A stretch of 64,000 nt of DNA from Catajapyx aquilonaris. Lineage: Eukaryota. Positions within the stretch are counted from its first letter, which is position 1. Each line of letters opens with the position of its first letter. The DNA is taken from contig KZ538346.1 in NCBI GenBank assembly GCA_000934665.2, forward strand, positions 1 to 64,000, read 5' to 3'. Positions 22,901 to 64,000 of this stretch are shown here, in pieces. The translations under genes were made by a program, and so were the position numbers. The notes beneath the pieces were generated by a model. The model was not told the origin of the DNA and did no database searches. It saw nothing but the letters and a program-made list of their open reading frames with translations.

Positions 22901-25900
22901 AATTTTGTAGTACCAGTATGTAAATTACGGAAAATTGATCCAGGATGGCAAAAATGTTGAAATGCAGCACATGAAATACTTCAATGACTTGATCTTCTCA
23001 TATGATTCCTGTATGCACATATGACATACCCATGTGCACTACTTGGTTAACTGAACTTTTCTGGCCTTCCTATGGCCGAATTCGTCAATGATGTCGTCGA
23101 AATTCAATTTTCGGGCAAGAGTGGCAATAAGGCATAACATTCCCAAGGAATTCAGTCACTGCTGCCCCATTGACGATCGTGTCTCACTTTTTATTTTGGC
23201 CATAGCACTGAAGGATCGTTCCGCGCCGGCAACTGAGACTGGGAGTGTACAGAATAGGAAATTCATCTCTGATTAATATTTTTGACGAATACTACCGGGT
23301 CACGCGGGGCCCCTTTGGGGGCCCGGGTCTGGGGAATTTTGCTCTCTCTCTCTCTCTCTCTCTCTCTCCCCCCCCCCCCCCCCCTGCCTTTNCCTTGATC
23401 ACGGGGTATCCATTATTAATCATTGTTATGCTGATTCTTGTGCATTGAAGACCTCCAAAACATGGCCCAAGTAAAGATTATAATTATCCTCCTGAGACCT
23501 GAGAAGAATTTTTTAACGCAATGTCAGTTCCTATTGCATTTGCTGAACATTTTCCCAATAAGAAACGAGAAAATTTTTTTAGTTTTAAAATATCGACAAA
23601 AATGGTGACAAACAACCAATGGGAACATTAGGACCCAATTGGTGCTACAAAAGCAGAACGGATGAAAGCTGAAAATTCAAATACCACTTAATGGATCACT
23701 CACATAGTGCTCTATCCTCAAAACAATGTTTTTTACATTCATTTGTGGAATTCGTCATAGAAATTCCTCTCAGAAGACAATTAAAGATAAATGAAATTAT
23801 TTTTGAACGCCACCACTCCAGGAATGGAGCTTGCTCCTTCCCTTCTTACCCGCTAGAGTGGTACCTTGCTATTCTAGATTTTAAAACTGAACTGCATAGT
23901 GAAAAGCGCACTTCCTTATGGGTGTATAGGTACAGGCACTTAAAGAAAAGTCACACCCATTCAGCTAAAAATGCCATTTTTCGGATGTCCATTTAAATGG
24001 GCATTTGGTCTCAGGAAGAAAAGAAAATTACCAGTTCTCTACAGCAACAAAGATTGTCACAGACACTTCTTTTCACAATTCCTAAGACACATTCCTTGCG
24101 AATCCCAGGACATTCACTGCATTGCGAAAATCGCATTCTAAATATGAGTAAAAAAATAAAACTGATCAGATGAGTGCCTAGCTTCAGCAGCGGAATCCGC
24201 CATTTTATCCGCGATTTAATTTTCGCGGCCCAAGCCAGATATTCGACGCTAGGTGGCTACACCTATTGAGGCCAGATTGTAACCATGGGATACCAGCATA
24301 TTACAGTTCTGTTGGCATCACTAGTTGGCGCAAAAAAAATCTTTTGCTGATGTCGACACCAGGTCTCAGGAGGATATTAATTATATTTATATTATATTAT
24401 TATACAGTATTATGATTATGCAGGGTGGTCGCTAAATGGCGCACAAGCTTCAGGTAGCGAGATTCCTTGTGAAAAACCAGTATATTGATGTGAAGGTCCT
24501 ATTGCTCTATGATGTGTGGTTATCTCTCACGAGGCCTCCAAAAGTTGGAGCCGAATTGTGACGTCACGTTCGCCCCCGAAATTCAAACACTACCGTATTG
24601 CTACTGTATTCGGTGTGTTGCCAGGTGTTGCCAGATATTGCCATGCGTTCCCATGCCCCTGTCCCCCACATTCCCTCGTGTTTACAAGGTTCCAGAGAGT
24701 TGGGTAGGAATGTGGGGGACGGCGGCATGGAAACCCCTGGCAACATTTGGCAACACTTGGCAATGAGGCGTCTGCAGTAGCGACTCGCTTTGCTCGGCGC
24801 TGCCCTCCCTCCCGTGGGGCTGCTCCCCACTTGCGCGCCGTAGGCGTGGGGACCGTAATCCATCGTGTTACAGAACATCCACCAGTGACGTCACTGCTAG
24901 TGATGAGGAATATCCGAACGTGCCCTCTCTGAAGTATCGTATTAAATAGAGGTTGGGATGGCAAGTGGAAACAGATGTTAGTAGGCAAAGGGGAGTGGGT
25001 GGGCCATTGTTCTTCCGGCTTTAAAGACCATATGCCAAAATTTTGGGCTGTTGGAGACTATAATTAAACGACTGTATCGAAGGAGTAACGGGGCTGGTGT
25101 CGTGCTTCTTTATGTCTCTCCCTAATGAACTCAAAACCTCTCGTGCAGCCCAGTAGTGGCTTGTTGATTAATTTCCGACTGCAAAGTTCAGTGTACCATT
25201 TGAAATAGCCTGATCTTAGAGTATGTTGTTAACCCATTTATGCCTAAGGTTGAAATTTCTAAATTCGTATAGGTTACCCAGAAATATTCAAGAAAGTGGG
25301 ATATAAATAACTCCCACGTGACTGGCCGTTCCAATAATGGAACGCTAGGCATAAATTCCTTACTGGCAACAATGAATCAAGAATAACATCAATTAAATCT
25401 CAGATTCTCAATGTATCTGACCTGGTGTAACCAGTCTTATGAGACAGATATGTGTCACCATGGTTGTAAGGTCCGGGCACCCCCCCCTCGTATCGCTGGA
25501 CTGCTCTGAACTTAGGTATAAGAAAAGTGCTTCTCTTCTACCTAAGTTCACAGCAGTCCCGTAGGGTCACCACATGTCTATGAAACCATGAAAAGAGCTA
25601 CCAAGTGGCCACCTGCCCTAAGGCGATAAGAGGGGAGAGACCAGACCTTACTATTCTAAGACCATGCTCTGGGCATTCATTGAACAAATTGAAGGGGAAT
25701 CAGGTGGAGGAGATCCTAAATGTAGGCATGTACATTTCCTATGTTTCCCCCTCTAGTTAGTGATTCCTAGATCTTAATTTCCACAACTTCAGCAGCTGAA
25801 TAGTTCATGAGGCCCCTGAACCTTTTCAGAGAGTATCCCAAATGAGGAGACAACTTATGAAGAGATAATGAGGATAAAAGCTATGCCTGTATCCATGGGT

Positions 25901-28900
25901 GTGAAACGTGAGCAGAAGGCGAAACTTAAGAATGGTCCGCGGCTGCGTCTGCAAGGCCTTGATGCTTGGAAATGGCAGAGGCGGAAGGCATGGGATCGCT
26001 TCAAGGAGAGGATGAGAGAGTTCCTGCGAAAGTTTGAGCTGTGGCACTACAGTTTGAAGCAGATTGAGGGGGCCAATGGGACTGGGGTGGTGTCCTATTT
26101 CCTCTTCATCAAGTGGCTCATGTACCTCAACCTAGCCACTTTTGCACTTATGCTGCTTTTCCTAGTGCTGCCAGATGTGTTTGCACAGCAGTCTATGAAC
26201 GACTGGGACCATTGCAGTGGAGGCAATGACACCATGGATAATGACACATGCTGTGTGCATCAGTATGAGGAAGTGGTCAATGCAACAATACTCTCACAGG
26301 TAGGTTGAGTTCTGTAGTCATTGGACTGTCCATGTAGTGATGTTTACGTATCGTAACTTTAGGAGATGAGGGCAAGCATTGTTATGAACTCAGAAATTCT
26401 GACATCGTATGTGTATGTTTCAAGCTCCTAGTCAGATTTGCGATTACTTCATATGTATGAAAGACCTGCAATTTAATTTCACTAAACACGTGGGTACAAG
26501 GCAAAAGAGAGGTTAGTAGAAGTTTTAGGTTGCATTTGGCACTGTTTTCAAGTTTAAATGGTAAAATGCCATTTACCAAGGCACAAGTGCTGTCTTGCCA
26601 TGGAAGGAAGTGCAGTGAAAAGAGGGATCACATGTGATGATGTAATCTTCTCTTGAGTACAGTGTGTCCCACGAATTAATGTCCTTTTTGTTATGTTAAA
26701 TTTCACCTAGAGCGGTTCCTTTTGTGTAGCTTTTTGCTCCCTGATCCAGATGCCCAATTATACAGGGCGAAGGGAAACTTGCGGACAATCGCCAAGTAGA
26801 CTGATAGAGTGATAGTACTCGCAAAACTAATATAGGGATGTGAAATTAGTTTTTGGCTCAGTTACGAAGTTAATGCGTACAGCACCCTTAAAGTGTAGAT
26901 GGCCAGATGGTAAAATATGAGGTAAAAACGACAAGGTGCACGGGTGTCGCACACGGATTCTTACTCGAATGTGCAGCCCCGTCACTTCTATGATATGGTA
27001 GTTCAGTATAAAAGTCTCCGCCAGACGGGGAATTTGTCGCTGGCGCTCCCCCACAGGAATCTACCACTGCCAGCCACCCCAATCCTGTCTGCAAACGCCC
27101 TCCGAGGAATGGACGGTTTGGTTTGGTTCCGAAGGTGGCCAACCCAAACCGACCCCCCCAGTGGATTGCTATGGGGGTGCACCACCGCCAAATTCCCCAC
27201 ATGGAGGAGCCTTTTATATTAAACTACCGTCAACACAGGGCTAGGCTGGAAGAGACAGGGGGCTGCTGATGGGATTTGATCACCTATTGCACATGGACGA
27301 TGTGTTAGGGGACCAAGGCCGGATTATTTGGAGGTCCTCGAGCTGAGTTTCGCTTTTTGAAACAGGTGGAGCGGATGTGATGTCACGAAACTCTGATGGC
27401 GCCATACGCATTAACTATGTATTGGCGCGCAAAACTAATTGCCCATCCCTGTATTAGTTTGGCGAGTACTATCAGTCTACGTGGTGATTACAGTGCACGA
27501 CAAGTTACGCAAAAAGAACAACTTCAGGTGCAATTTGCCATAACTAACAGGACTCGAATTGATTGAGTGACGGTTTATTGGCGCAACAGCAGCACTGGCT
27601 ATACTGCGAGGACCAGAATTCTTGGAACACATTGTATATTGAATATACCTTCCTTGAGATGGGCAATTTCATAATGGAAACAGTTTTCTTTGCTGAAAAC
27701 TTCAAAATGGCGGCAACATTATTTTATGAATAAGAACATAATTGAGTGTTTAGTCCCTCGATTATCTCCTGGTTTTGATGACAATTTGTAGCATCCCTTT
27801 GGTCCATCCCACGTCAATGAGATCCCAAATTTGACAGACTGTGTATTGCCGACATTTCAAGCATTACTTTGTTGTCCACACAGGAAATTATGCACATGCG
27901 CATGTTTGGCTAGAGGGTGCAGGCATCGCATCACATGATCAAAAGGGAAGCAACCCGCCTTACGTGCCTTCCAAGCGCAGTCCATGCATGCGAGAATGCC
28001 ATGATAATGTCCACCCGCATACAGCAAATCCCATCAAATATTTCATGCAGAAATTGAAGTGACAAGTCCTCAGCCACCCTCTCATTACCGTACCAACCTG
28101 TCACCTTGTGACTTTCACGGTTTTATTGAACCAAATAAAGCTTTTGCCAATGCCGATTCCGGACAGACAAAGTGAAGGAGGGGATTCGGATGTACACAGT
28201 AACAGCCAAAATACTTCTATGAGGTGGCCATTGTATGCCTAGTGTATCATTGGGATAAATTGCTCAATATTCACGGCAATACTTTTGAAAGAAAGGTTAA
28301 ATGTTACATTGATAAAGCCTTAAGATCGTTTTTTATTGACTGGACGGTGCTTTCGGTGGGTTGCTTTGCTTTTGATCACTTGATGCAACGCCTGCTCCAT
28401 CTAGTCGCACATGTGCATGCCCATAATGTTCTTTAAGGTTTGAAGGTTATCCCTGCCAATCAGCATTAATCCATGTCCCACAGGTTTTCCACAATAAGTA
28501 CAGCTCGTTTTATATTGACCCCACCTAATACACGAGGGGCGTTGGAAAGTCTTTACACTTTTTTTTTCCCCCCACAAATACATGGCCATGCAAGTCGGCA
28601 GATAAGGCACATATTATCAATAGAACCCTCCTGGAGCTGAATACACTGGCGCCACAGATGTGGCAACCTCTCCATGCCCTCGAAACCTCTTTTTGGAGGT
28701 GCAGCGCACCCAGTCCTGGACAACTGCTTCCTGTTCAACAATGTCCTCGAAATGGCATCGACGAAGGGGTTTTTTCATGGATCCGAACAGATCCATGAGA
28801 AAAAAAAAAAAAAAATCCTTCACAGACGCCATTTTGAAGACATTGTTGACAGTTGTTGACTGTGGGCAATTGTCCAGGATTGGGTGTGCCGCACCTCCAA

Positions 28901-31380
28901 AAGGTGGTTCCAGGAGGGCCTGGAGAAGTTGCCACACCCGTGATGCCAGTGCATTTGGCTCCAGGAGGGTTCTATCAATAATGTGTGCCTATCTGCATGG
29001 GCCCTGCATTTGTGGCAAAAAAATTAAGTGTAAAGACTTTCTGAACGCCCCTCGTATTATGCTCATTGCTTGATTTGAAAATAAATTTTTGGGGGAATTC
29101 AGCTCAGGGGGAGCAGGGCTAACAACTCAGGTGTCTTGTGACTCAATTAGGGCTATTGTGAATTGTTAAACATGCCTATAAACTGGAGTTCTCAAATTTC
29201 CTCCTACTACCAGAATTTGTTTCCATGTGACCATAGAAGGTTGTAAGTTTCTGGTCAAGGTGTCATTACAAGGAATGAACTGAGGAATTCTTGTCATCTA
29301 GGATTGTATTCTCAAAGCTTGGTTAGTGGATGAGCACATGTCTGACGGCCCAAGTAACAACCCTGTATTTCGGCTTTTTGTGTTTTCGAGATATTCGCAT
29401 TTGAAGTTTTTTTGTTTCCATTATCGTATATGGAAATGCATAATTTCAATTGACCATAACTTTGCAAGGGTTGCTCCTACAGTTACGGGCTTTGTACCAA
29501 AAGGTGTGGCTTGCAAAGAGGAGTGCAATGGTGCATTTATCTCCAATTACGTGATTTTCGAAGATAGAGGGTTTTAACTTGTGCCATCAGATGTGTGCAT
29601 GGTGTGCCACAAAATTTCAAGTTCTTTCTTTGAGTGTAAGAGGCCAATGATGCACAGTTTGATATTTCCTGGGGCCATTGGGCTATGGGCCATCTGCTCT
29701 CCCAAGGTAGGTTGTGTACAAAACAGTTGAATCACTGATCTAGACCATAATATTATGTTAACCTTGCATGAAACCTCTGTGCACTGTGTTGAATGGACAT
29801 CATCTATTTCTAACCTGCAGGGTGACTGGATTGTTGACTGGCTGCAAGACTTGGTCCAAGGCACTGGTTGGATGGAGCGCACCCTCATGTTTTATGGCCA
29901 CTACATCCATCGCACTATTGTTCTTCCTGATCCATCACTGCCTCCATACAACCTGGCCCTTGCTTACATCCTGACCATTGCTGCTTCCTTTGCACTCAGC
30001 CTGGTGGCTATGGTACGATCCACTGCTCGAGGTTTTAAAGAAAGCATGCTGGAGCGTGAGGGACATTTTTATCAGTATTGCAATCTGGTATTTGGTGGGT
30101 GGGATTTTTGCATAAGTGGAGGCAAAGCAGCACAATTCAAGCACCGTGCTATATACAACGAAATCAAAGCCAACTTGGAAGCTGAAAGGATGGAGGAGGA
30201 GCGGCGTAGTCGGACACGTCTGGAGCGTACCAAGTTGGCTATCATACGTGTGGCAGCTAATGTTGCAGTATTAGCCATACTGCTGGCAGCTGCAGTGGCC
30301 ATCTTTTACACAGCAGACTTCTCCCGTCATGCCCTATCTGGCAAAAAGCCAGAGCAAGTGTGGGTGTTCCTGCTGGAATTTTTGCCACCGCTTACCATCA
30401 CAGTGCTGAACTTGCTAATACCAACCCTGTTCCAGAATGTCGTGCGTTTTGAGAAGTACACACCATCTTTTGCACTGAGGGTAACCTTGGTACGCACAGT
30501 TTTCTTGCGTCTGGCCAACTTGGCGGTTCTTGTTGCCTCACTCTATGACAAGCTGGGATTGTCACCTGGAAACCACTGCTATAATGTTACTAGCGATCTC
30601 TGGTGCTGGGAGACATATGTTGGGCAGCAGATGTACAAGCTGGCCGTGCTTGATTTCTTTGTAGTAGCACTCATGACATTTGTGGTAGACTTTGCGCGCA
30701 TGCTGGTTGGGCGTAAAACCTCAAGCCGCCTTGCAAAGTGTCTCTCGCGACAGCAGTTTGACCTGCCAAAGCATACACTAGATGTGGTCTACGCACAAAC
30801 ATTGTGCTGGTTTGGAATCTTCTACTCACCCATGCTGCCATTACTGACCGCTGCCAAGTATTTCCTGTTCTTCTATGTGAAGAAGTTTGCATGCTTGATC
30901 AACAGTGCACCTGCATCAAAAGTATATCGCGCTTCACGTTCCAGCTCCATGTACATGGTCGTTCTGCTATTGTCATTTGTGGCAGCAGTGCTTCCAGTTG
31001 GATATTCGGCAGCCACATTATACCCTTCCAAATCATGTGGACCATTCCGAGGCTTGACCAGCACCTGGGGCAAAGTTGTGGAAGCTGTCGCAGAATGGCC
31101 ATCATGGATCAATGCAGTCGTGTTCTTCTTTGGCACAGCGGGATTTGCAGTCCCTCTCCTAATGGTGTTGGCAGTTGGGTTGTACTATTACCATGCAGTG
31201 GCATCAGCAAATCAGCACATGGTAGCAGTGCTGAAGAGCCAGCTGGTGTTGGAGGGACATGACAAGCAGTTCCTGCTAAACAGGCTCAACTTGGTTATCC
31301 GCAAGCACCAAGAGCAATGCCAGCAGCAACAGAGGGGGGGTGATTTTGCTGCCTCCACATCCAACAACTTTGATAATTGA
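19948..31380 (+). CDS. Transmembrane channel-like protein (TMC7-like), ~777 aa; exons 19948-20122, 20189-20317, 25830-26299, 29821-31380
   Basis: Splice sites keep frame (phases 1,1,0). WEEAGAEFYQESYP N-terminus, LKQIEGANGTGVVSYFLFIKWL, FGGWDF, TMC signature CWETYVGQQMYKL, PSKSCGPF and multiple hydrophobic helices. Acceptor AG at 19939-19940 implies an upstream 5'UTR exon. Confidence 0.9.
20884..21329 (+). mobile_element. Tc1/mariner-type MITE with ~115-bp TIRs
   Basis: TA-CAGGGTGAAGGGAAACTC...; inverted copy with an extra insert at 26761-27490; fragment at ~51640-51702. Confidence 0.8.
21422..21670 (+). mobile_element. tRNA-derived SINE with V-domain-like core
   Basis: A/B boxes followed by GAGTTTCGATGGTTTCTCTCCGTGTTCGCGTGGATTTTCTTGGGGTTCTCCTGTTTCCTCCC. 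Confidence 0.65.
22460..22808 (-). mobile_element. tRNA-derived SINE (family B) with poly-A tail
   Basis: Reverse strand AGTGGCGCTGCGGTAAC...GGTTCGATCCC; matches 48047 copy; T-run at 22462-22483. Confidence 0.75.
26761..27490 (-). mobile_element. Second copy of the 20884 MITE, inverted, with internal insertion
   Basis: Same TIRs; internal sequence reverse-complementary to 20884-21329. Confidence 0.75.
27840..28290 (+). pseudogene. Degraded mariner transposase fragment
   Basis: HDNVHPHTA and LSPCDF-like remnants of the HDNA/YSPDLAPSD region, with stops and frameshifts. Confidence 0.55.
28531..29056. mobile_element. Foldback mariner derivative made of two inverted 3' ends, in TMC intron 3
   Basis: CGAGGGGCGTT termini; ~225-bp arms; GMERLPHLWRQCIQLQEG resembles the mariner C-terminus. 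Confidence 0.8.
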
Positions 31381-36800: not shown

Positions 36801-37250
36801 CGAGTGTAATGAATGAATGAATGAATGAAATGAAAATGGTCCACATTTCCTCCTATGAGCCTGGAGTGTCACGTGGGTGTTATACACAGGAAACCATGTG
36901 TCACAGTTTCTCTCTGCATGGGTCATCCACAGTTAATAACCAAGAAGACTGGCACAAGTAATCTGTTCTTGACAGTGACTGACACTCTGTAGATGGCCCA
37001 TACCCCCAGGAGGAGGCAACGAAGCTCGAAACGAAGAGTACCTATTACCAAAGTGCCTGCTATTACCTTGTTGCGGATCCGTCTTAACCTCCTCAACGAA
37101 AGGATGGAAGTATTTGTCCACCTCTGCCGGTCCATCGTGGTTTATCTGGCATGGCATAAGGCACGCATCCTTCGTCAATCGGGGCACGTCGGCTCTATCG
37201 GTTGCGCCGGACGGTGCATCAGTACAAATCCCTCTCAAAACTAACGCCAT
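33813..37250 (-). CDS. RNASEH2C: Ribonuclease H2 subunit C, ~146 aa; exons 37250-37067, 34130-33901, 33839-33813
   Basis: LMPCQINHDGPAEVDKYF, FRGYPLQG, TYWNWDKQPS, LDWISIAEQIHS motifs; GT-AG junctions in frame. Confidence 0.9.
36303..36562. repeat. ~90-bp direct repeat (36303-36395 and 36468-36562), upstream of a (TGAA)n-tailed retroelement end
   Basis: ATAGCTGTTTACATCGCCCATCGAACAC...CTATTTACATC occurs twice. Confidence 0.8.
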
Positions 37251-37540
37251 TTTAGACTTTATGGACCTATCCGTGGACCTATCTCTCCGAGAGGCAGGCG
37301 GGCATAGGCTCAAACTGCCTCAAAGATTCCTGTTCCTTGGGCCGGCTGGCCGGTAGCGGGCAGCACTTGTCAGAAAAACATCGCCAGGCAAGAATGTTTT
37401 GAATAAATTTCTAGTGATTAAGATGTCATTTTTAAACTAAAGGTAGTAAGAAAACCTAGTCATACTTATTTACTAAACAGCTACTAATTTTAGACGGGTG
37501 GCATGGGTGGCATGTTAGCAACCTGGTAACAAATCTAACA
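37251..37540. promoter_or_regulatory. Probable bidirectional promoter between RNASEH2C (-) and COA4/PTRH2 (+)
   Basis: Divergent start codons only 290 bp apart; CGCCATTTT (YY1/Pho-like) overlaps the RNASEH2C ATG. Confidence 0.65.
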
Positions 37541-40500
37541 ATGGCGGCGCCCCACTCTGATGATGAACATCGTGAAAAGGCCGCAGCAGCTGAAGCTGAT
37601 GAGGATCCAGTAGAGAAGCATTTGAAATCATTAGGCTGTCTGGAAAAACACTATAAGGTTCAGGTAAGGGCGGTTTTTTAGAGGGTTATTTCCTAAAGGG
37701 GATGCAATTCGAAATTTTCTGAGCTCAGGACCAGTCACTGGAAATACCATTTTTGGTCAGGCAGGATGCATATGGTGCTGGTTGCACAATCGCAGATAGA
37801 GCCATAAATCCCAGGTTTGCCGTTATTATTGTTGGCAACAATGAACCAGTCTATAGCGATGGCAAAGCCTGGGTTTAAGGCTAAACTTGTTCAACTCCAG
37901 TGTAGTTCGCCTACCGTCAAAAAGTGGAGTGGTAGGGGTAATAAACAAAATGTGATAAAAAATCTCCATTAACCCGTTCGCTACCAGATTGGCCTGAACC
38001 ACGTTGATTTTGGCTTATGTGTACTCACAAGGGAAGTGGATGTAAGGGTATCGGCCTATGGGCCCGAAAATGACACTTCAGGTAAATTGCTGGCCAGAAA
38101 TTCATTGCTGAAAATAAAAAGTGCCATTAGCCAAGCGTTTTCGAGATATGAGCGACAATAGGTGCACAGCAAACCTGCGCGCAGTCGGTAGAGCGTCCGC
38201 CTCATGTTCCAAAGTCTCCCTGTGAGTAGGCATATTCATAATTTTCGCCCATCCAGACTGTTTAGCAACACTGCAAATAGGTTGACATTGATATTTCTTC
38301 TCTCATTCGTGTCCTTGTCAACTTGCAATAACTGCTCAGTGAAACCTCAACCGTAAATGAACGCATGTACAGATAAACAAATAATTACGAAGGGACACGA
38401 ATAATTTATTATTTACTGAGCTTGTGACTATTCATTTTTCCAAATATGAAGCCATGGAGAGAGTAGGTAAGCATCGGCAGAAGATTAAAAAAGTAATGCA
38501 CTTCCCAGCAAGCTGTTTTATTCCTGTTGATTGCAAATTGCAAAGGGGAAGATATGCTGTGATAAACGGTGTTGGGAAAAAAGAATAAGAAAACGATGCT
38601 CCGAGGGCACATGAGGCGGACGCTCTACCTACTGCGCACAGATGTGCCGTGCACCTATCGTCGCTCATATCTTGAAAACGTTTGGCTAATGGCATTTTTT
38701 ATTTTCATCAATGAATTTCTGGCTTGCGATTTACCCGAAGTGTAATTTTCGGGCAGATTGGCCGATACCCCTACAGACACTTCCCTTCTGAGTGCCGGAT
38801 TTAACACCCCCCCCCCCCCNACACTTAAAAATTCCGCCCTTCGGCAATTGCCGTTTCTGCTTGTAGTGGTAAATCAAGCCCTCAAAAATATGATTTTCTT
38901 TGTGATCTCGCCTTTATTTCCTATTATTGTATTGAGAAATATTATTACAACTCGCAGCCGCCCCTAGGTCAGTGCCTACTGTGCCTAATGGGAAATCCGG
39001 CTCTGCGTGTACTTCTATGATAAGGACAAGATATTTTAATAACGGCTATATTTACCCGTTCAGGGAAAACACTATATATGTTTCGGGAGCAATATTAATC
39101 GTCTAGAAGTCCCTAAATTAATTTCCAAAAAAAGTATATGAAAACTCGAAATTCAGGTACTGCCGACCATCTCTTAGGCCAGTGGTTTCCAACCGGGGGG
39201 GTCGAAGGGGGTCGCTAGCCTTTGTCAAACTTGTTTTTTTTTTTTTTTGCAATTTCTGNNNNNNNNNNNNNNNNNNNNNNNNNNNNNNNNNNNNNNNNNN
39301 NNNNNNNNNNNNNNNNNNNNNNNNNNNNNNNNNNNNNCGGGGGGGGGGGGGTCGCACATTTATGGGAACATGTTTAGGGGGTCGCAGTTGGTAAAGGGTT
39401 GGAAACCACTGTGTTAGGCTGATTTAATTATGAAATGCTTGAAAATATGCGGAATAACAACCTTGAGAACCATGCCAGACAAATTTTCGAATAGATGCCC
39501 AGACATAATAGCCTGCCCTTAGACATATGAGGCAACACACACAACATCTCTTTGTAGGAGGATCCCCTCCAAGGCAAGAAAGCTGTTCCAGTGGTGTTTC
39601 ACTGATGCGCGTTTCTGCCAATCAAAGAAATAAATCTCCACAGTTTTGAAACACAGAATTGGTTTGCCATGTCTAGAAACACACAACAATGTTGTGATAT
39701 TGCAACCTTTCTTGGTCAATTGTATATGTGAGGAAGGTGGTGACCGAAGTGGAGGATTGAAGATATGTGCCATGTCTGCCACTTAGAGACATTATGCAAA
39801 AAGCAGATGTATATGGATATCTGGCCACGCCTTGTGAAAGTTTCCCATCATTTTATAACCTGTTGGAAGGGGCTGAACACAAAATAATGCATGGCAAACG
39901 CATTCCACTATCGTAAAAAGGTCTAGGCCTGTGTGTTCCACCCTCCCAGTAACAGTTTATTGGTTAGTTCATGTGATGTTTCCATTCTGGAAGTGATATT
40001 GGATCAAAGAGTCTGAATGTAGAATTTGAACTAGTAGAAATTGCATCAAGGACAATCATGCTTTTGACATTTGACAATGAACTTTAGGAAACATGACATA
40101 TAGAGTTTTAATTGCAGTTCATCAAATACACACACTGTACACCTTTTTTTTTTGAAAGCCACGTACTTGCTTCAATTTGCTGATATTGTTTTGTGAGGAT
40201 TGGTTTAAGTCACTGTAACATAGTTTAATATATTTAAATGGATCCCACCTCCTATTAGCCTTTCTTCATTGTCCTCATCTTTTATCTTTCTCTTGCGCTT
40301 TATGTCCCACTTCGAATATTGTGTACTGAGTATTGCTTTGAATTCACATAGATATTTTGGATAAACTCTTGTTTATCCGCACCTTAACAACATGGTCGGT
40401 GTTAGGCGGGTGGGGGGCCTCCCAACGGTTGGCAACTTTGCGTCGCAAACAATCGGGTGCCTATTGATACTGCTGCATGGTTACATGGAACTGTGCTGTA

Positions 40501-41735
40501 TTCTTCTTTTCGGGCTTTCGGGGATTCAATTCGGGATTTTGAGGTGATTAAGTGGATGGAATAGCCCTTTGTCTTGGTGTTGCTGTATGACTTTTTGTTA
40601 CCGCAACAGTACTGTACATGGTTGTGGCCCTGCCAGGCATGGTACGACGCCCGTGCGTGATATTTTTAGTTTTTGCGGAGCTGAGCGCTTAATGTGGGTT
40701 TCTGTATCCGCAACATTTACTGTCCGTCTTGTGGCGCCGCAGGCCAATGAACGCTATTGTGGCTTTGCCAAGCGCGAAGTACACCTTCACACAGTCCGTT
40801 AAACCAACGAACTACATGACGCCAAGTTCTGCCCGCCTCCACCCGGCTCTCCCCTCCAATCATACCCACGACTCACTCTGCAGGCATACTACTGCGCAGG
40901 CTCATAAAACACGCCTTATGGTGTGACATCATGTCGTTCTCTGGGTTAACGGACTGCAGCAACCATCATGGCTTTCATATTTCCCACCTCCTTCATTAAT
41001 ACTGTGGTCCTAGCACTCGTCTGAACGGTTCTAGTGGCAGGGGTAAGAAGACGCCCTTTATTATGCTCTCTCGGCAACCAGTTGTTTGCGACACGTAGCC
41101 AACGTGTTTGGAGCCCACGACGCCCTCCCAATCTCGCCGCGTCGCTAGGTGCGGATAAACGATAGACTTTCAGATATTTTTTTGTTACTGTTGATTGACA
41201 AGTGATTATTCATGAATGTTATTATTATGTACACCCCGCGAGCATAAAGATGGAGAGGGCAGGCTGCTCTGTCAATTACGGCAATTATGGTATCAAATAT
41301 ACTGTCAAAAATACACGAACACACGCCTGAAGCAGCAAACTCGATCCAAAAATAGTTCATTAATTTGAGTCGGATATAGAAAGGTCAAAAAAGGGTCTGC
41401 TGTCTCCATCTTTATGCTCGCGGGGGTACATGCAACTACAACCTGTCATGTTTTTGTTTTTACTATGTATTCAACACTGAATTGTAATTTCTCATAGTAT
41501 TATCAGTGACGGCAAGTTCTCTCCGTCATAAGGGGAAATAACCCCAGACCTTAATAAATATTATTATTATCATTATTAGTATTAATTTTAGCTTCAAAGC
41601 TTAACTGTCTCTCTACTTGTGCAGGATTGCATTGCACACCACCGCGATTGGAGGCAGTGTCAAGAGGAAGTCAAGCAGTTTCGTGCTTGTATGACTTTAC
41701 ATCAGAAGCGCCTGGAAGATAGGAGTCCCCAATAA
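37541..41735 (+). CDS. COA4: Cytochrome c oxidase assembly factor 4 (twin CX9C protein), 77 aa; exons 37541-37663, 41625-41735
   Basis: Manual translation: MAAPHSDDEHREKAAAAEADEDPVEKHLKSLGCLEKHYKVQ|DCIAHHRDWRQCQEEVKQFRACMTLHQKRLEDRSPQ*. C-X9-C-X9-C-X9-C spacing and DWRQC motif; CAG|GTAAGG donor and TGCAG acceptor, phase 0. Confidence 0.9.
38022..38794. mobile_element. Non-autonomous element with ~190-bp TIRs in the COA4 intron
   Basis: 38022-38215 is reverse-complementary to 38600-38794. Confidence 0.75.
39180..39411. mobile_element. hAT-like MITE (contains an N-gap)
   Basis: CAGTGGTTTCCAACC TIRs; 8-bp TSD TCTTAGGC/TGTTAGGC. Confidence 0.7.
41229..41431. mobile_element. MITE with ~35-bp TIRs
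   Basis: CCCCGCGAGCATAAAGATGGAGA ... TCTCCATCTTTATGCTCGCGGGG. Confidence 0.7.
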
Positions 41736-41746
41736 GCCAACTGAAC

Positions 41747-42223
41747 ATGGATAGAAGTGCAACCGCATGGTGGGCCACGACAGTGGTATGCTCCTTTGGG
41801 GTTGGAGTTGTAGCTGGTACCCTAATTCGACGATGGAGTCACATCTTCAGATCCAGATCAGCTGTTGTGGGTCCATGCAAAATGGTACTTGTAGTTCGAA
41901 ATGACATACGCATGACGAAGGGAAAGATTGCAGCCCAGTGTTGCCATGCTGCAGTAGCCTGTTTTCGAAAGGCCAGCGAACAGGCTCCAGAATTACTAGA
42001 TGCATGGCGTAATAGCGGATCTCCCAAGATTTGCTTGAAAGTGGAGAACAAGGAGATACTGTTGGAACTTCATGGGAAAGCTGAGACAGTGGGTGTGATC
42101 AGTGCTTACATTCGGGATGCAGGTCATACCCAGGTTAGCCCAGGGACCATTACAGTATTAGGTATTGGTCCCGCTGAGGATAATGACGTTGATGAAATCA
42201 CTGGTAACCTAAAATTACTGTGA
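41747..42223 (+). CDS. PTRH2: Peptidyl-tRNA hydrolase 2 (Pth2/Bit1), 158 aa, intronless
   Basis: N-terminal hydrophobic anchor, KMVLVVRNDIRMTKGKIAAQCCHA, PKICLKV, IRDAGHTQV, TVLGIGP, ITGNLKLL. AATAAA at 42252-42257. Confidence 0.93.
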   Translation: MDRSATAWWATTVVCSFGVGVVAGTLIRRWSHIFRSRSAVVGPCKMVLVVRNDIRMTKGKIAAQCCHAAVACFRKASEQAPELLDAWRNSGSPKICLKVENKEILLELHGKAETVGVISAYIRDAGHTQVSPGTITVLGIGPAEDNDVDEITGNLKLL

Positions 42224-42395
42224 TGGTATGTATCATTGTGCCTCAGTCATGAATAAAACTTGTTGAATACAATCTGACTTGCTAGGCCGTCTTATGCCAT
42301 GTGGCACCATCACAGGATTCAAGTAAAACCTGCATTGGTGCAACCTGGCTCATCCTTTTCTCTGTAACCCTGCAGATTCATCTTTTCATATTGAC

Positions 42396-42798
42396 CAATG
42401 GTTCCCAACCCTAGGGTCGCGACCCAAAATTATGTAGCCAACATGTGTTTAAGTGTCGCAAGGAAGGTCAGGAAAATGAATTATTTATTTATTTACATTA
42501 CCCCATTTTAGGGCTGGGCCCTTTTAGGAAGGGGAAATTAATTAAATTAAGGGAAAAGGGGAAGAAGAAAAATAAGGCAAAGAAGAAAAATTCATCTCAA
42601 ATCTACATAAGCATTGTACTGCACCTGGTTGAGCATTTTGGCAATTTAAAAAATTTGCAGGGTAAAATATAGAGATCGGGTGGGGTGGGGGGGGGGGGGG
42701 GGNNNNGGGGGGGGGGGGGGGGAAAGGGGGTCATAAGGGTCACCAGGCCAAGGAAAGGTAGTTTGGGTTGTGACAAAAAAAAAGGTTGGGAACCACTG
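42396..42798. mobile_element. hAT-like MITE
   Basis: CAATGGTTCCCAACC/GGTTGGGAACCACTG TIRs; perfect 8-bp TSD ATATTGAC. Confidence 0.8.
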
Positions 42799-42954
42799 AT
42801 ATTGACCATTAGTACAAGTACAGTACAATACTCAAACCAATTCAGGACATAGAACATCATTTTGATTTGTAATGAAAAATAAGTTTCATTTTTAAAGTGG
42901 CACCATTGTAGGGTAAACCATACAGTGATGGCCCACTGTGCCTTAGTTCTTTAA

Positions 42955-43368
42955 AGGGACACTCCACTCAAAAAACAAGTTTGGCTCTAAAAATCGGGTA
43001 AAAAATCCTGAATGTGTCAGTGCAATTCGTTTTTTACTATGCGGAACGGTAATCCCAGGGCGAGGTGTCAAAGTGTGTCGTCTGCTAATGAGTGGCGCCG
43101 CCACACGTGGAACAGGGGAACTGGAGGGCTGCACCGCTCTGGGATGAGCCTAAGCGCGCGGGACGGCGGGAGCAGCCATCCAGTTCCCAAGGTCCCGAGG
43201 GGGTCGCTGGCGGACGGCCAGCTTCTAGCGCACTATTTGAATTTCCCCACTTTGACCCCTTGCCCTGGGATTACCGTTCCACGTAGCGAAAAACGGATTA
43301 CACCTTCGGATTCAGGATTTTTTGCCCGATGTTTAGAACCAAACTTGTTTTTTGAGTGGCGTGTCCCT
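42955..43368. mobile_element. MITE with ~120-bp TIRs at a TTAA site (Kolobok-like ends)
   Basis: TTAA-AGGGACACTCCACTCAAAAAACAAG... and its reverse complement. Confidence 0.7.
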
Positions 43369-43474
43369 TTCAGAAATAAGCCCTGCTAATGCCATACCAT
43401 GAATCAATGGACATGCTGTGACACCTGCCGTCCCTGGCTTGAACTTGGTCAAAAATCCGTCCACAGATATAATT

Positions 43475-45580: not shown

Positions 45581-46861
45581 TCACCGCTCCAATACCCGCC
45601 GCAGGACCTGCTCCAGCGGGTCCTTCTTGAAATGTGCACTGCGAAGGAAATCATCCCGGGCTGTCTTGGCCAAAAGCACTTCCAGGTTACCTCGGAAGTT
45701 TTCTTCTGGAGTTCCTGCTATTTCTGTACTTATGCCACACTTCCTGACCACACTGTCCAGAAGTTTTTGAGTTGTTACCTTTGGCCACCCCAAAGCTTTA
45801 AGGCGTTGAGGTCCTAGCAAATATTGCAAATATTCTTGCACATCTCGAGTGAATGTGTCTTGCAGCTGTATCAACTGGCGGAACTCACGGAATGACCATG
45901 AAATGGTTTTGGGTGACTTACTATTCCCAGAAAATTCTGAGAGAGCCTTGCGATAAAATAAATGCTTGTACATAACATCATTCTCTGAATGTGTCCGTAC
46001 ATGTCTCATCATAGTTGTCAGGTCTGAAGCTATGGACATGCACACAACACATAACAGCTTAGCCTTATGAAGTGATATATATGCACATCTGTTAGGAGTA
46101 GACGATATGTGGGACAAAAAATGTTGGATTGAGCCTGACTCAGGGGGAGTTTCATAGCACATCTGACAACTCTTTTGACCAAAGGATGCCATCTTCAGCA
46201 TGCGCTTTAACAGCTTAATCGGATGGGCTGACATGGTGTGATGATGGGTAGCACGTAAAGAACCGAACAATTCATGACATAAAGCACAGTAGAATTTAGC
46301 TTGCAACTTACCACTATGCACCTCCCGCACTTTGCAAGCATAAAATGCATCGCAAATCAGGGTTTGGTATGATTGGCACTTATGCTTTCTCAGGTCACAA
46401 ATCTCATTGCATTTGCGGCATAACAGCAAAGGTTTTGAGCCTTTACGCCTAAGTGAATCAGGTTTGCTCTTGATGAATGTCCTGAGCTGCGTCACTTTTG
46501 AATCCTGATCATACTTCGCAGTTCTGGAAGGGGCAAGCCTCTTTTTTGGAGTGGCTGTTTTTTTAATTATATGCTGACATTCTATATGGCTTGTATATCC
46601 TGTAAATTTGCGGAAACTACATCCACAAGGAAGACAAACATGCAGTTTCCCAACAGGTGTTCGGGAATAGTAATGCCCCTTCTTGGTCCTGCCCTGCAAG
46701 CGTGAGTCACTTGCATGTTCCTTAGCACAAGGTTCCAGCTTCCTCTGATGGTTGGACAAGCTGCTTCTCTTGAGAAATGCTCGGGAGCATCTACAGCACA
46801 TGTAGTATTTAATGCCTCTGAACACAAATTCTCCTTGTTTAATGGCAGAGGCAGTCGGCAT
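45581..46861 (-). CDS. C2H2-type zinc-finger protein with dispersed fingers, 426 aa ORF; upstream exons unresolved
   Basis: Fingers such as CLPCGCSFRKFTGYTSHIECQH, CALCHELFGSLRATHHHTMSAH, CVVCMSIASDLTTMMRHVRTH and further degenerate ones. A TTTTCAG acceptor lies directly before the ATG. Confidence 0.75.
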   Translation of the reverse strand: MPTASAIKQGEFVFRGIKYYMCCRCSRAFLKRSSLSNHQRKLEPCAKEHASDSRLQGRTKKGHYYSRTPVGKLHVCLPCGCSFRKFTGYTSHIECQHIIKKTATPKKRLAPSRTAKYDQDSKVTQLRTFIKSKPDSLRRKGSKPLLLCRKCNEICDLRKHKCQSYQTLICDAFYACKVREVHSGKLQAKFYCALCHELFGSLRATHHHTMSAHPIKLLKRMLKMASFGQKSCQMCYETPPESGSIQHFLSHISSTPNRCAYISLHKAKLLCVVCMSIASDLTTMMRHVRTHSENDVMYKHLFYRKALSEFSGNSKSPKTISWSFREFRQLIQLQDTFTRDVQEYLQYLLGPQRLKALGWPKVTTQKLLDSVVRKCGISTEIAGTPEENFRGNLEVLLAKTARDDFLRSAHFKKDPLEQVLRRVLER

Positions 46862-56700: not shown

Positions 56701-59700
56701 AATATGGTAACCCTACAAAAGTGATTATCAGCAGGGTCGGTAATCGTGGCCCCCGCGTCCAGATATGTTCAGAAGTGTCCAAAGACTAATCGTGGCGAGT
56801 TTCATGTCCTTGTCACAGAATTCAAGCTCACTATTTGAATAAAAATGCCTGTTGCACAGCCTGTTGGATTTCGCAACCTCGTGAGTGACTCACAGCGGGG
56901 TTATCCATCGTGGCCTCACTTCCAGACATATTCATAAATCATAAGTGTCCAAAGACCAATTGTCGCGAATTCACCACCAATGCGACACTACACCCGACCC
57001 CAATATGGTACAAAATGAGCAATCCGTTGAGCTAAGGTCAACCCCTTCCTCTTCCCCGACATTTTAACACTGGACTCAACCATGTGAAGGCACGAGGGCA
57101 CCTACCAATTTCCCAGTCGCAATCTTCTTTGCACCCCAACAAGCCGGTTTTCCAACCAGAAATTGTCCCCCTTTCCTCAAAAATATATTCCAAGGCCACA
57201 GCCAATAGCAATTCCAGAAATTACTAGACACACGTGGTCCAAAAAGGGTTACTCAGAGGCCACCCGGAATTGCCGATAGTGAACCCGGCTGTAGTTTCTA
57301 TTTTTGTGACTCGCAGGAGATAATGCAAACCTTTTGATTTCCGTTATGAACAGTGATTTTCTCTGAAGGGAGCCAAAAATCCCTTCCGTTTCCGTGTTGG
57401 ACAGGTTCCGTTATATCCGTCAAAAAATACATTGCATGCCCTATGCATATTCCCATTCCCGGAAAAATTCTGTAATGGATAGGTTTCCCCTATATCCCAG
57501 TTTCGTTATGGCCAGGTTTCACTGAATTAGCTCTCCTGTAAAATTTATAAAATGGTCTATTCGCCCTTTCTCCTTAATGCCGACGATATGCAAGTTGCAG
57601 TAACACTATTCGTGATGCCTGTTTCTCATGTACTGATCCTTTAAAAAACTAGCTTGTTAGAGGTGTTTTTAGGTAGTACATAATTATCATTGGATACAGA
57701 GAAAACCCTCTAAGTCCTATTTTGGCAGATTTGAGTCATTTACACCAGGGGCTCTCAAACTGTGGTACTTCAAGCCATGTCAAGTGGTACTCATGTGGCC
57801 TGTGCATGTGACTTTGCAGTAGTTTTACCAGTTTATACGCCTTGCGCTTTTTTAAAACTATTCTTTAACTAGTTTTATATCACTTTAACCTCATAATTAC
57901 AGTCATTACAGTGATTATAGTGACATTTTCTTCAAAACAACACGGGTGTAAATTAACCATTCATTGACAGTGGTACTTCAGTTTACTGATCCTCACGGAG
58001 TGGTACTTGTTCAAAAAAGTTTGAGAACCACTGATTTACACCACTAAAGGCGGGTTGCACCAGAGTAAAGGTACGTTTACATGTGAGCGATTTGACGAGC
58101 GAAATCATCACCGAGGCTGAAATTAACAATCGATTTTTCCCTCAAACAATATTGTTTACTTGGGTTACGTAGCCTAGGCGAATATTTCGCTCGTCAAATC
58201 TCTCACATGTAAACGCACCTTAAGATGCACATTCAGGTATGGGACTACCATACCCTTGTTATTAATTGAGGGGGTGAAAATCAAAAACCGACAGCTCCAT
58301 CATAAACGTAACGGAGAAAAAAACGAGAAAAACCTACAGTTTCGCCGTATATGTCAACGTAGATACCTGAATGTAGCGGCTATTCCCATGTAGGCCTACA
58401 TATGTAGGGTTTTTGATACCATATTCAGGTATTATGTAGTCCATGGCATGAGGAATGCATTTCCGGCGCTAACTCATTTTTTAAATTTTCAGGAGCTGTC
58501 GGTTTTTGATTTTCACCCCCTCAATTGTTAGTTCATTGTTTCCACCAATTAATAACAAGGATAGTCCCATACCTGAACCTGCATCTTACTCTGGTGCAAC
58601 CTGCCCTGAAGGTCAGCTGCATGAACTTAGTTAAGGGTAACTATGTAGTTAGTCTATTTATGCAAACAAGAGCAAACAGCATAGTTAACCTTAACTCATG
58701 TTCATACAACTGGCTCCCAGTAGCATTTTTTCTGCTGCATTGCCTGTATTGCCCAGTAAAGTTCATTTAGTCCTAACGATTGATAATGAGCCAGCATGTC
58801 AGGATTTACTGTCTTCACTAGCATGTAAACAAGTGCAAGGTCAAATATTTGCTTAGGATTATCTATATAAAAAAATCTTCGTTGATTTCTCCTCCATGCC
58901 CATGATATCATCTCTGGTAATTATTTCTTTTGTTGGCAATAATTGGACAGTAATGTACAATTCCATCTTCCAACCATGACATTAAAAAGAGGTCATGTGT
59001 TATATGCACAAGTAGCCAAGATTTTTCCGTGACAGACTGGCTCAGTAGTTTTAATATTTTTTGGTATGACATCGTTTTGTCATCTTTTAATTGTGTGTTT
59101 AATTGTGTTAATTGTGTTTTGAAATTTGTTGAAATTTTTGACTTTCACTCTGCAGATCCAGAAGAGTCATTGAGAGCTCAACAACAGCAAAGTTGCTTTT
59201 ACCGTTTAGTCACTGCCTTCAGGGAACATGGCCACAAAGCTGCCAATATTAACCCCATTTCCATTGATGATGTTGCGTAAGTGACCTTTACGCTTGTGCT
59301 TGATGAACCAGGCATGCTCACTTTGATGAGTGCATGGTCATGCCTGCTAGTTTCCTTGTTATTATTCTATTGGTGTGTGTTCCAGATGTGTGCCTGAATT
59401 AAATCCAACTCGCTACGGGTTAGGTATGAGTGACAGAGTGAAATTCAATGGCCTGTTGCACTTTGAAGAGAAGGAAGGTTCCTTAGAAAATGCTTTGGAG
59501 TTGCTAAAAAAATGCTACTGTGGACCACTGTCTGCAGAATTTCACCACTTGGAAGTTTGTAGAATTTTATATCATCAACGGTTTGTGAGGATGCTAAAAT
59601 TCACTTTACTGATACAGGTCGAAGAGGAGAGGGAATGGTTCTGCCAAAGAATGGAAAAGTCTGTGCAAGAATCACTGAGTCCAGAGGAGCGGAAGTCTCT

Positions 59701-60192
59701 GGCAATAGAAATGTTAAAGTCTCAAGCATTTGACAATTTTGTGGCTACCAAGTTTGCCACAGTGAAAAGATATGGAGGGGAAGGAGCAGAGAGCATGATG
59801 GGCTTCTTTACTGAATTGTTTCAACGTTCTGCTCATGGTGACTCCCCATCTCATGACAGCATTTCCAATTCATCAACAATTTAACTTTGTTGCAGATGGC
59901 ATTAGAGAGATTCTGATTGGAATGCCTCACAGAGGCAGGCTAAACCTACTGACTGGCCTATTGAAGTTTCCTCCTGTTCTCATGTTTCGCAAAATGAAAG
60001 GAATGTCTGAGTTTCCAGAAGATATGGGTTCCATTGGCGATGTCTTGTCTCATTTATGTGAGTCTCCATATTGATGTTTGGCACATGTAACATTATCAGT
60101 AATTCAATATTTTGGCAGGTTCATCAGTGGATTTGGATATTGAGGGAAAGACATTACATGTTACCATGTCCCCGACACCATCCCACCTTGAG
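53748..60192 (+). CDS. DHTKD1: 2-oxoadipate dehydrogenase E1 (DHTKD1), 5' portion; exons 53748-53925, 59156-59276, 59386-59554, 59618-59837, 59896-60057, 60119-60192; continues beyond the window
   Basis: Arg-rich presequence then [76 protein letters not shown]. Junction phases consistent. Confidence 0.92.
54960..56970. repeat. Array of ~110-165-bp imperfect units, with inverted units at 56700-56970, interrupted by SINE and MITE insertions
   Basis: Recurring GATAAA...TGAAACTCGGTAC...GGGGCCA...AGGGTTGCCATA at ~54970, 55140, 55632, 55800. Confidence 0.6.
56128..56701. mobile_element. TTAA-type TIR element; ~250-bp inverted partial copy at 60414-60664
   Basis: TAACCTGTTGAGGACC / GGTCTTCAACAGGTTAA termini; the two copies give near-identical spurious ORFs on opposite strands. 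Confidence 0.75.
57746..58033. mobile_element. hAT-like MITE
   Basis: CAGGGGCTCTCAAACT / AGTTTGAGAACCACTG; perfect 8-bp TSD ATTTACAC. Confidence 0.8.
58048..58607. mobile_element. Nested MITE cluster: outer element plus inserts at 58069-58220 (TAA TSD) and 58268-58522 (AATT TSD)
   Basis: Three pairs of TIRs readable directly. Confidence 0.75.
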
Positions 60193-62346
60193 GTAATGTA
60201 TAAAAGAATGCATAATTTTTGCTAGACATTTGTTGTTCACAGTTCTAAAGGAAGTGATATACAATACATGCATTATAATTAATAATTCTTAGGGAGAATT
60301 TGTATCAAGAGAAAGGACTTGACTTCCATAGTAATGGTTTAGTTTAAAGCATCTGAAACTACAAGTATGATATGGAAACTATGACCTCCCTTTTGTGCAG
60401 CAGGCACTAATATTTAACCTGTTGAGGGCCACGCGCCTCATATGAGGGTGTGCGGATGTTTGAATTTGACGCGCTCAAATATGCACAGAGAATTCGAACT
60501 TTGCGGTTCCAAATTCGGTTCAATATACTCCTGGTATCTCTTGGATGGTGGCTAAACTACCATGACCCTCCCACAATGCACTGGGCGGGAGCCAAGCTGA
60601 GTCGAACATGCCAAGGACACGCGACTGCAGCGTCATCTTTCATGTAAACAAACGCCCTGAGTACCAGTGGCGGATCCAGAAAGGTTTTTTTTTTTTTTGG
60701 GGGGGGGGGGGGGGGGNGGGGGGGGGTGTGAACAGGGCCCACCGCGGGCGAATTTTTTTTGGGGTTCGAGGTCACAACCCTTCCTTGCGACCCCAACTTT
60801 GGGGTCGCGACCGCAAAATGGAAAAGAACCCATAGAACAGTGCAATCTTGCACCACTCGCTAATGAATTTGTCCCACTCGCTACTTTACCCGTCATTTCT
60901 TTAATAACTTTAACACGAATGAAGATATCAAAACGAAATTTGAACTGAACTGGCCTCATTATGTGAGAAAGGAAATGGTATCACAACATGGGGTTGAAAT
61001 GGCCACCATTTGCATCCAGGCAGACGTAAACCTGACGTTTCATATATGGAAGGTTCAGGCTAACATGTCCTGAGGCACTACCTGAATTTCTGGGATGGTG
61101 CTTTCTTTCAAGGGGTCAATGGTTCGTGGTTTGTTTCAGTACATATGACACACATCACATGTCGCCATGGCCAAAATTCAGTCCTTTTTTGGTGACCGAG
61201 TCATTTCATAGGGACTTTTGGTCACCATGGTAGCCCGATCTTGTGCCACCTGATTACTTCTTATGAACCTTTCTGAAAAGGTGAGTGTATCAAATCAAAC
61301 AAACCACACTCCATCAACAACTTTAAAGAAATCTGCATCCAAGAAATTCAAGCAGTATCTCAGGACATGCTAGCCAGGACCTTCCAAAATGCCAAAATGT
61401 GGAGTGTCATGTTCAGGCCTGCCTGGACGCAATTGGTAGCCATTTCAACCACATGTTGTGACGCCGTTTCTTTTCTCACATAATGAGGTTAGTTCAGTTC
61501 AAATTTCTTTGCTATACCTTCGTTCATGTTAAAGTCATTAACCCAGATATGCCTGAAAGATTTTTTGTTTAAATTTTGGTTTTTGTTTGATTTTATTAGT
61601 TCATGATAGTCCCCATAACAACAAAAATGATAAAAAAAATTATGGAATGCTAGATTGTAAGAAAAGTGTCGTCTCCTATAGGGGACACTTGGCAAATGTA
61701 ACATCTAGTATGGCTATACTGTATATATACAAGGAAAACGTAAGATATAGGCTGCTGTATTGAAATAAAGATGAAAGTGTTTTTTTAATTAATTGAAAAA
61801 ATTAGAGAAGGAATGTTATAGCTAAGACCCAATGTCCTATATATAGGACATCTAAATTTGCAATAAGTGATTGCAACAAAAATATGAAATATTCTGAAAA
61901 ATGGCTTCTACACCTCCACTCCGTTTATATCAGCCATCGGCTCTTTAGGGGGGAAGTTTGTTTTGGCTGGAACTCTTTGCTTTCATTTTACTATGCTCAT
62001 TGGGATAGGATAGGGATGGAAGGAAGCGGCTGTGGCCTATTAATTACGGAAGCAACTCCGGAATTTCCCTGGAAGGACCGTGGGAAACCACAGAAAACCA
62101 CGGTCAGAGTTGCCGGCCCCAGGATTCGAACCCAGGACCTCCCGATTAGCAGTCGGACGCCTTATCCACTATGCCAACCTGCTTCGGTTACTACACCTCC
62201 ACTACAGAAGGTTCTTTCAAAGTATTACTAAATAATTGCACAAATGGCTTCTCGGGTCTCAGGAGGGTATAGCGGAAACTTGCTCATTGCGGAATTTTAG
62301 AGTCACTTGCTATTCAGATATGTACAGGTTTTGCTGTATATAAATA

Positions 62347-63103: not shown

Positions 63104-64000
63104 ACCCAAATGAGAAAGTTTGTATGCATGATAATGTTTGATTGTACATGGCAATGGGTTACCAGCATAGCTACGATGGTTGCCATGGTAACCCAGTTGC
63201 CGGGTAACCCTCGTTTTAAAAATAGTGATTCATAAAAATTCAGTTCGACAAAACGCACAAAATCCGGACACATACAGTAGCCTAGATTACCGGTGCTTGA
63301 CTTGCCGGTCCATTTGTGGTGCATTTGCCGAGTGTCCCTCATAGGGGATTTCAACGCCACCCTCAGACAAGGAAAGTAAAAAATATGCCTATATTTCCAC
63401 ATGAACATCATCATTCATAAGTTTTCTAAGTATTACCAACAAAAAATAACTCACAATGCTAATCAACATTCGAGAATTAATTACTAATCGTCTTCGGAAC
63501 GTGGAGGTGCAGCCATTATTTCCTGAGTTAAACTTCAAACACCTGTATCTTAAAAATCTGTAGCAATATTGAGCAGGTTTGAACTTGTATAGTTAGCTGG
63601 GACTCTACTGAAGCCCCCATCACTACTGCCAGCTCTTTAGCAGAAGAAGAACCTGCGCAAAAAATTAAAATGTAACAACTGTGCAGGTGTCCCCTATAGG
63701 GGACACTCGGCATATCTGGGTTAAAGAAATGTTGTGTAAAGTGGCAAGTGGGACACTGTGAAAGATAGAATAATAACTCGGAAGAAGTGGTTGGAATATT
63801 GCAAATGCAATTCGTAAAAAATTGCGAATGGCCACAGTAATCACTTGGAATTAAATTTCAATTTGAATTTTTATACCAATGTACATTTTGCCCTATTTTC
63901 AGAGTTGCATTTTGTTAACTAAAACGGACATTTAATAATGTCTGATGCTCGGTCTGATGATTGCACAGTGATAATAGAGTCCGGATTTTTAGGCATGGAA

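Follow-up and report, generated by a model that had tools for sequence, protein, structure and literature searches.

COA4 and PTRH2 as a probable dicistronic gene pair in Catajapyx aquilonaris

Introduction

Messenger RNAs (mRNAs) that carry two protein-coding open reading frames (ORFs) are described in flies and green algae, and we report here a probable case, the COA4–PTRH2 gene pair, on the plus strand of a 64,000-nucleotide (nt) stretch of the Catajapyx aquilonaris genome (GCA_000934665.2, contig KZ538346.1, positions 1 to 64,000; hereafter the window). FlyBase curators record 159 pairs of dicistronic genes; where loci are exclusively polycistronic, the spacers run from −34 to 319 nt. They also note a good first start, together with several AUGs inside the first ORF, at most fly dicistronic loci (Crosby et al. 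2015, PMC4528330). File S1 of that paper gives CG44194/CG17327 as 'all di/polycistronic', with a 16-nt overlap in an 851-nt locus, and also contains the dicistronic fly pair Ccdc56/mtTFB1. CG17327 is described as encoding an aminoacyl/peptidyl-tRNA hydrolase (PMC3411240), and CG44194 as a gene for complex IV assembly (PMC13712805). Twin-CX9C upstream ORFs (uORFs) are reported in fly CG9865, CG30290 and CG9288 (PMC2276209); in sloth1/sloth2, tested as a case of leaky scanning, a 79-amino-acid (aa) first ORF is followed by a 5-nt spacer (PMC9681215). Green algal bicistrons have weak first starts and fewer AUGs in ORF1 (PMC11892635).

We found no paper on COA4–PTRH2 linkage or its mechanism in the open-access literature. 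In the window, the two ORFs very likely lie on one shared mRNA, and PTRH2 is probably translated chiefly from it. The initial annotation had proposed a dicistronic unit here, a claim now supported by a spliced contig over both ORFs, by conserved gene order and spacing, and by FlyBase's listing of a pair that is probably this one.

A spliced contig spans both reading frames

The RNA evidence comes from one public run of unrecorded type, examined over 37200–42450 and judged to be RNA from its spliced joint. A 512-nt contig from this run matches the window without mismatch or gap and joins 37544–37660 to 41622–42016. The joint, a 3961-nt GT..AG skip (37660/41622, cut at +3), is identical to the predicted intron. 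The COA4 stop, the spacer and the first 270 of the 477 nt of PTRH2 all lie within this one spliced contig. Its depth of 27.8 accounts for the mean depth of every exon bin checked (5/5), and therefore nothing is left for another contig running from the intron into exon 2; none was found in this run, where starts inside exon 2 are invisible to contigs. The contig is an assembly, and assemblies lose rare forms and do not show start, end or strand. Coverage in the run ends at 42016, an end from which nothing follows.

No canonical polyadenylation (poly(A)) signal was found in the window between the two ORFs. Because none precedes 42252 in the spliced RNA, the COA4 mRNA very probably holds the whole PTRH2 ORF. 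The AATAAA at 42252 had been described as the only one; this holds for canonical signals in the spliced RNA, but the intron contains four more copies, and the COA4 stop is overlapped by a weak variant, AATAAG at 41731. The locus is laid out as follows, the exons, stop, spacer and PTRH2 ATG all having been reproduced from the sequence by script at the positions first proposed.

37516..37531, plus strand: two TRGYAAC-type motifs, 10–25 nt 5′ of the COA4 ATG; a tentative, weak promoter element
37541..37663, plus strand: COA4 coding exon 1, 123 nt, 41 codons, with a GT donor; the first CX9C begins here
37560..37613, plus strand: putative short out-of-frame ORF within COA4 exon 1, from sequence only
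37664..41624, plus strand: COA4 intron, 3961 nt, phase 0, GT-AG, its joint seen in the run contig
41625..41735, plus strand: COA4 coding exon 2, 111 nt, with an AG acceptor and the TAA stop (41733–41735)
41736..41746, plus strand: intercistronic spacer, 11 nt, spanned by the run contig
41747..42223, plus strand: PTRH2 ORF, 158 aa (477 nt), without intron, in a different frame from COA4
41771..41827, plus strand: N-terminal hydrophobic segment of PTRH2, residues 9–27, mean hydropathy 1.75; a probable membrane anchor
41876..42220, plus strand: PTH2 catalytic domain, all 115 profile positions
42252..42257, plus strand: AATAAA, probable polyadenylation signal common to both ORFs; it lies beyond the run contig and its use is inferred

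AUGs were graded by the Kozak start-context rules. Both main starts, COA4 at 37541 and PTRH2 at 41747, have A at −3 and G at +4. The PTRH2 frame is shut upstream by TAG at 41720, and readthrough of the COA4 TAA meets two sense codons and then TGA, so that a fusion by readthrough is improbable; both points agree with the initial annotation. The COA4 intron contains four inverted-repeat elements and one assembly gap. Elements resembling miniature inverted-repeat transposable elements, with long inverted arms, occupy 38023–38793 and 40346–41425 in the intron and 42953–43370 just 3′ of PTRH2.

Identity of the two proteins

The first ORF has 77 codons, two CX9C motifs and no presequence. The four cysteines of the twin CX9C hairpin are retained in all four loci compared, namely the window and three metagenome loci described below (L004, L005 and L017). 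The match of COA4 exon 2 to the CHCH family (PF06747, E 1.3e-5) lies just under the cut-off, and the top Atlas match of exon 2 taken alone is COA4 (0.86, a lead only). The top Atlas match of the L017 orthologue is also COA4 (0.97), and the L017 and window proteins share 55% identity over 49 aa. A word-based protein search with the exon-2 frame gave no match, and one match to exon 2 was found in the genome. By these comparisons, ORF1 is nearer to COA4/CHCHD8 than to other CX9C families. Where the initial annotation had treated it as a functional uORF, COA4 is a real, conserved, single-copy protein-coding gene, not merely a uORF, and it may in addition regulate PTRH2 as one.

The second ORF matches PF01981 (PTH2) at E 1.5e-45 and keeps the conserved GK, Q, H, W, DAGxT and GP positions of that family. 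Its nearest solved structure is human Bit1/PTRH2 (1q7s, E 1.1e-32), and the methionine encoded at 41747 lines up with Met1 of 30 homologues. A word-based protein search with PTRH2 gave no match at a cut-off that was too strict. Judged from hydropathy and alignment, ORF2 would be a membrane-anchored PTH2 of the PTRH2/Bit1 type; PTRH2 sits at the mitochondrial surface. At least three PTH2-fold genes were found in the genome, and the anchored one was found only at this locus. The remaining two, G000:C209 (L002) and G000:C959 (L089), we take by resemblance to be of the intron-containing UBA-PTH2 type and the PTRHD1 type. A PTH2 tree with 41 rows leaves the window row unplaced; of its 38 inner branches, 5 are well supported.

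The gene order recurs in other loci

Metagenome contigs were scanned with a PTH2 alignment, the best 80 of 537 loci were kept, and COA4 was sought by tblastn. Thirteen of the 80 were inspected by eye; most others are apparently microbial and were screened only. COA4 lies directly 5′ of PTH2 in three of the 80: L004, L005 and L017. L004 is genomic, is 73% identical to a Daphnia-type query, and has an 11-nt spacer and a 130-nt COA4 intron that matches the window's in codon position and phase. L005 has no intron and a 4-nt spacer, and clusters with L004 and Daphnia in the PTH2 tree (support 95/96). L017 also lacks the intron; its spacer is 30 nt and its COA4 and PTH2 ORFs are in frame. A canonical AATAAA stands within that spacer (L017:249–254), where early polyadenylation could yield a COA4-only RNA. 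Downstream of PTH2, L004 and L005 have in common a convergent membrane-protein gene on the minus strand, presumably GPR180/TMEM145-like by its resemblance, with no match in the window.

COA4 was not found in the 1–5 kb upstream of PTH2 in four animal-like loci (L008, L009, L011 and L012), and L006 and L010, with just 32 and 132 nt of upstream sequence, are uninformative. A profile from the four COA4 proteins recovered no further locus among the 80, the three known ones matching by construction. In a named species, the Daphnia pulex RefSeq protein XP_046443783.1 (P0161) fuses both proteins, so COA4 adjoins PTH2 there too. The comparison of gene order in relatives that had been called for thus shows the COA4–PTH2 order recurring in L004, L005 and L017. 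Taken together, exact predicted splicing and recurrence in three other loci show that the COA4–PTRH2 arrangement exceeds chance.

How PTRH2 could be translated

We propose that a single promoter just upstream of 37541 would give one spliced, capped mRNA ending after 42252. This mRNA would carry COA4, a twin-CX9C complex IV assembly factor of the intermembrane space, followed by PTRH2, a peptidyl-tRNA hydrolase anchored in the membrane. The majority of ribosomes would translate COA4, and a minority, aided by a probably short leader, would skip its AUG. Skipping ribosomes would either scan on or translate the internal ORF at 37560..37613, whose AUGs at +20, +23 and +59 open 17, 16 and 4 codons, and then rescan the 172 nt of spliced RNA between its end and the PTRH2 AUG. 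On the way they would bypass an in-frame AUG in weak context within COA4 exon 2 (41691; +190 in the spliced RNA) before initiating at the strong PTRH2 AUG. PTRH2 output would be low, in a fixed ratio to that of COA4. We give this combination of a leak at the COA4 AUG and a relay through a short internal ORF a probability of roughly 0.45; it is the route that requires no new machinery. Across the four loci, 4 to 8 additional AUGs lie between the two starts, and the internal out-of-frame ORFs are all of at most 17 codons and all terminate before the PTRH2 AUG.

Several observations weigh against this proposal. All four loci carry a purine at −3 of the COA4 start, in contrast to the weak first starts of sloth1 and the algae. 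Out-of-frame AUGs number 17 against 20.4 expected from synonymous shuffles, which in this small sample is no significant depletion (P=0.12), and the absence of ORFs overlapping the PTRH2 start is expected by chance (P=0.78). The contig that spans both ORFs is an assembly rather than a molecule, comes from a single run whose type is unrecorded, and ends at 42016. Because the COA4 start context is good and the internal AUGs are undepleted, pure leaky scanning fits poorly, its usual signature of weak start and AUG depletion being missing here. The initial annotation had proposed reinitiation or leaky scanning, and neither displays its usual sequence signature at this locus.

Two weak hints point to a short leader: the contig begins at 37544, and the TRGYAAC-type motif lies at −25 to −10. 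Neither fixes the start site. The motif also occurs 25 nt 5′ of the ATG of DCPS, a gene elsewhere in the window, and is found before neither the PTRH2 and UBE3D ATGs nor those of the UBA-PTH2 and PTRHD1 genes. It was defined post hoc and has 43 copies in the window, with clusters at two further promoter-like sites; a very short COA4 leader would follow from it only tentatively.

Alternative explanations

PTRH2 might instead be made from the same mRNA by termination and reinitiation right after the full COA4 ORF, which we consider unlikely on present sequence. The best argument for such stop–start coupling is that the distance from stop to start stays tight (11, 11, 4 and 30 nt, and −16 in the fly) while the intron has reached 3961 nt in the window against 130 nt in L004. 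Coupling would also accommodate a COA4 AUG in good context, tolerated internal AUGs and the G at +4 of the PTRH2 AUG in 4/4 loci, and its viral counterparts operate within about 20–30 nt (PMC10275272), a distance found here. However, 65–77 codons are long for ordinary reinitiation, known long-ORF cases usually require an RNA element, folding at the junction is no better than in shuffles (z −0.15 to +1.16), and the L017 spacer is 30 nt. UGGGA is the motif of elements of the TURBS type (termination upstream ribosome-binding site), and it is present in just one of the four loci. A TURBS element at the junction was considered and rejected, as no UGGGA-bearing structured element was found upstream of the stop. 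A cellular, TURBS-free form of coupling, kept from water-flea relatives to flies, with a Daphnia splice over the stop perhaps also sending a COA4–PTH2 chimera to the intermembrane space, is a doubtful extension. If true, coupling would keep the output of a complex IV assembly factor and that of a peptidyl-tRNA hydrolase on the mitochondrial surface in a set ratio.

Two overlapping units are rather unlikely: a COA4 mRNA with an untranslated PTRH2 tail, and PTRH2 from a shorter RNA whose start lies within COA4 exon 2 or is dispersed 3′ of the COA4 AUG. Initiation inside an exon produces no contig branch, FlyBase remarks that at many fly dicistronic loci the second gene has a promoter downstream (PMC4528330), and the AATAAA in the L017 spacer and the AATAAG at the window stop make COA4-only RNAs possible. 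Yet no contig in the run leads out of the intron into exon 2, no monocistronic form is annotated for the fly pair, and no listed core-promoter motif lies near the PTRH2 ATG (a weak test).

Operon-like processing, with trans-splicing of a leader between the two ORFs, or an IRES (internal ribosome entry site) is very unlikely. The AG at 41735–41736, 10 nt 5′ of the PTRH2 ATG, could serve as an acceptor for trans-splicing, but the pyrimidine tract before it is poor (7/16), the contig passes the junction unbroken, and the poly(A) site plus acceptor between genes that mark trans-spliced operons are absent. IRES use may be common in the opinion of the FlyBase authors (PMC4528330), although the junction shows no Rfam match and no stable structure.

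The weakest alternative, a fusion in which splicing removes both stop and anchor and so sends the hydrolase to the intermembrane space, has in its favour XP_046443783.1 (197 aa), a whole CX9C domain joined to a PTH2 domain with no anchor, but it is highly improbable, since this protein is one of 12 cluster members of which four other aligned members retain the anchor, a donor over the stop codon yields no in-frame join in L004, the window has no GT at the stop and no in-frame donor with good consensus, no stop-skipping joint is listed in the run, and no second case appears among 181 proteins compared. A word search with the Daphnia COA4 part among proteins of 108–345 aa gave no match and missed its own query too, and is no evidence against other fusions. 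XP_046443783.1 would be a minor splice form or an annotation chimera. Even together, fusion, IRES and trans-splicing are improbable, and we favour the leak-and-relay proposal on one shared mRNA.

Other features of the window

A second compact pair lies at 2492–8810 on the plus strand. DCPS (PF05652, PF11969) ends at 7768 and overlaps the first part of a HECT_2/UBE3D-like ORF that has no intron (its ATG may be 7731, 7740 or 7752; PF09814, E 2.4e-39) and whose stop overlaps an AATAAA at 8806. This pair is probably the other dicistronic unit of the initial annotation. A TMC-family gene (PF07810) occupies 25820–31380 on the plus strand. On the minus strand, 45581–46861 holds a 426-codon Cys/His-rich ORF whose spacing resembles that of zinc fingers; Pfam gave no match to it at E 0.1. 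The plus-strand exon at 59351–59884, without a Pfam match, presumably belongs to a 2-oxoacid dehydrogenase E1/DHTKD1-like gene, which it resembles. Clusters of TGGCAAC/TGGTAAC at 24590–24770 and 63150–63210 are probably promoters, accompanied by what we take to be sites like the cAMP response element (CRE) and the X-box. Calls resembling tRNA-Ser(GCT) at 12539–12610 (plus strand) and 62111–62182 (minus strand) may be tRNA-derived short interspersed nuclear elements.

Comparison with known dicistronic systems

Human COA4/CHCHD8 and PTRH2/Bit1 (PDB 1q7s) belong to the same protein families as the window pair. In humans they are separate genes on different chromosomes, and in the vertebrate-like PTRH2 locus L011 there is no COA4 in about 1 kb upstream. 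What is new here is the transcript support in C. aquilonaris and the depth of conservation, by which a dicistronic pair catalogued in the fly now reaches into distant lineages of arthropod-like kind; the branchiopod–insect split lies about 450–500 million years back. Annotation pipelines are likely to lose one gene of such a pair or to fuse both, as the Daphnia model suggests. The locus also offers a natural test case for second-ORF translation in animals when the first ORF opens in good context and contains several further AUGs.

Two of the features by which FlyBase recognizes dicistronic genes are found here: two intact, distinct ORFs on the same strand and a spliced RNA carrying both (270/477 nt of ORF2). 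We infer that CG44194 is COA4, and CG44194/CG17327 is very probably orthologous to the COA4–PTRH2 pair. Both loci place a complex IV assembly gene and a tRNA hydrolase gene on one mRNA; the fly locus is 851 nt with a 16-nt overlap, whereas the window has an 11-nt gap and a 4-kb intron. With sloth1/sloth2, the CX9C uORFs and Ccdc56/mtTFB1, which belong to an already described class of small mitochondrial and twin-CX9C first ORFs, the window shares a short, conserved mitochondrial first ORF, a short spacer and a shared mRNA. It differs from sloth1, which has a non-optimal start and a paralogous partner in the same complex, in its good first start and its unrelated proteins, for which nothing points to mutual binding. 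Green algal bicistrons likewise combine unrelated ORFs with a short spacer, and their translation is scanning-based, but their weak first start and AUG scarcity are not seen at this locus. COA4–PTRH2 is probably a further case of the dicistronic class catalogued in flies, probably orthologous to an annotated fly pair.

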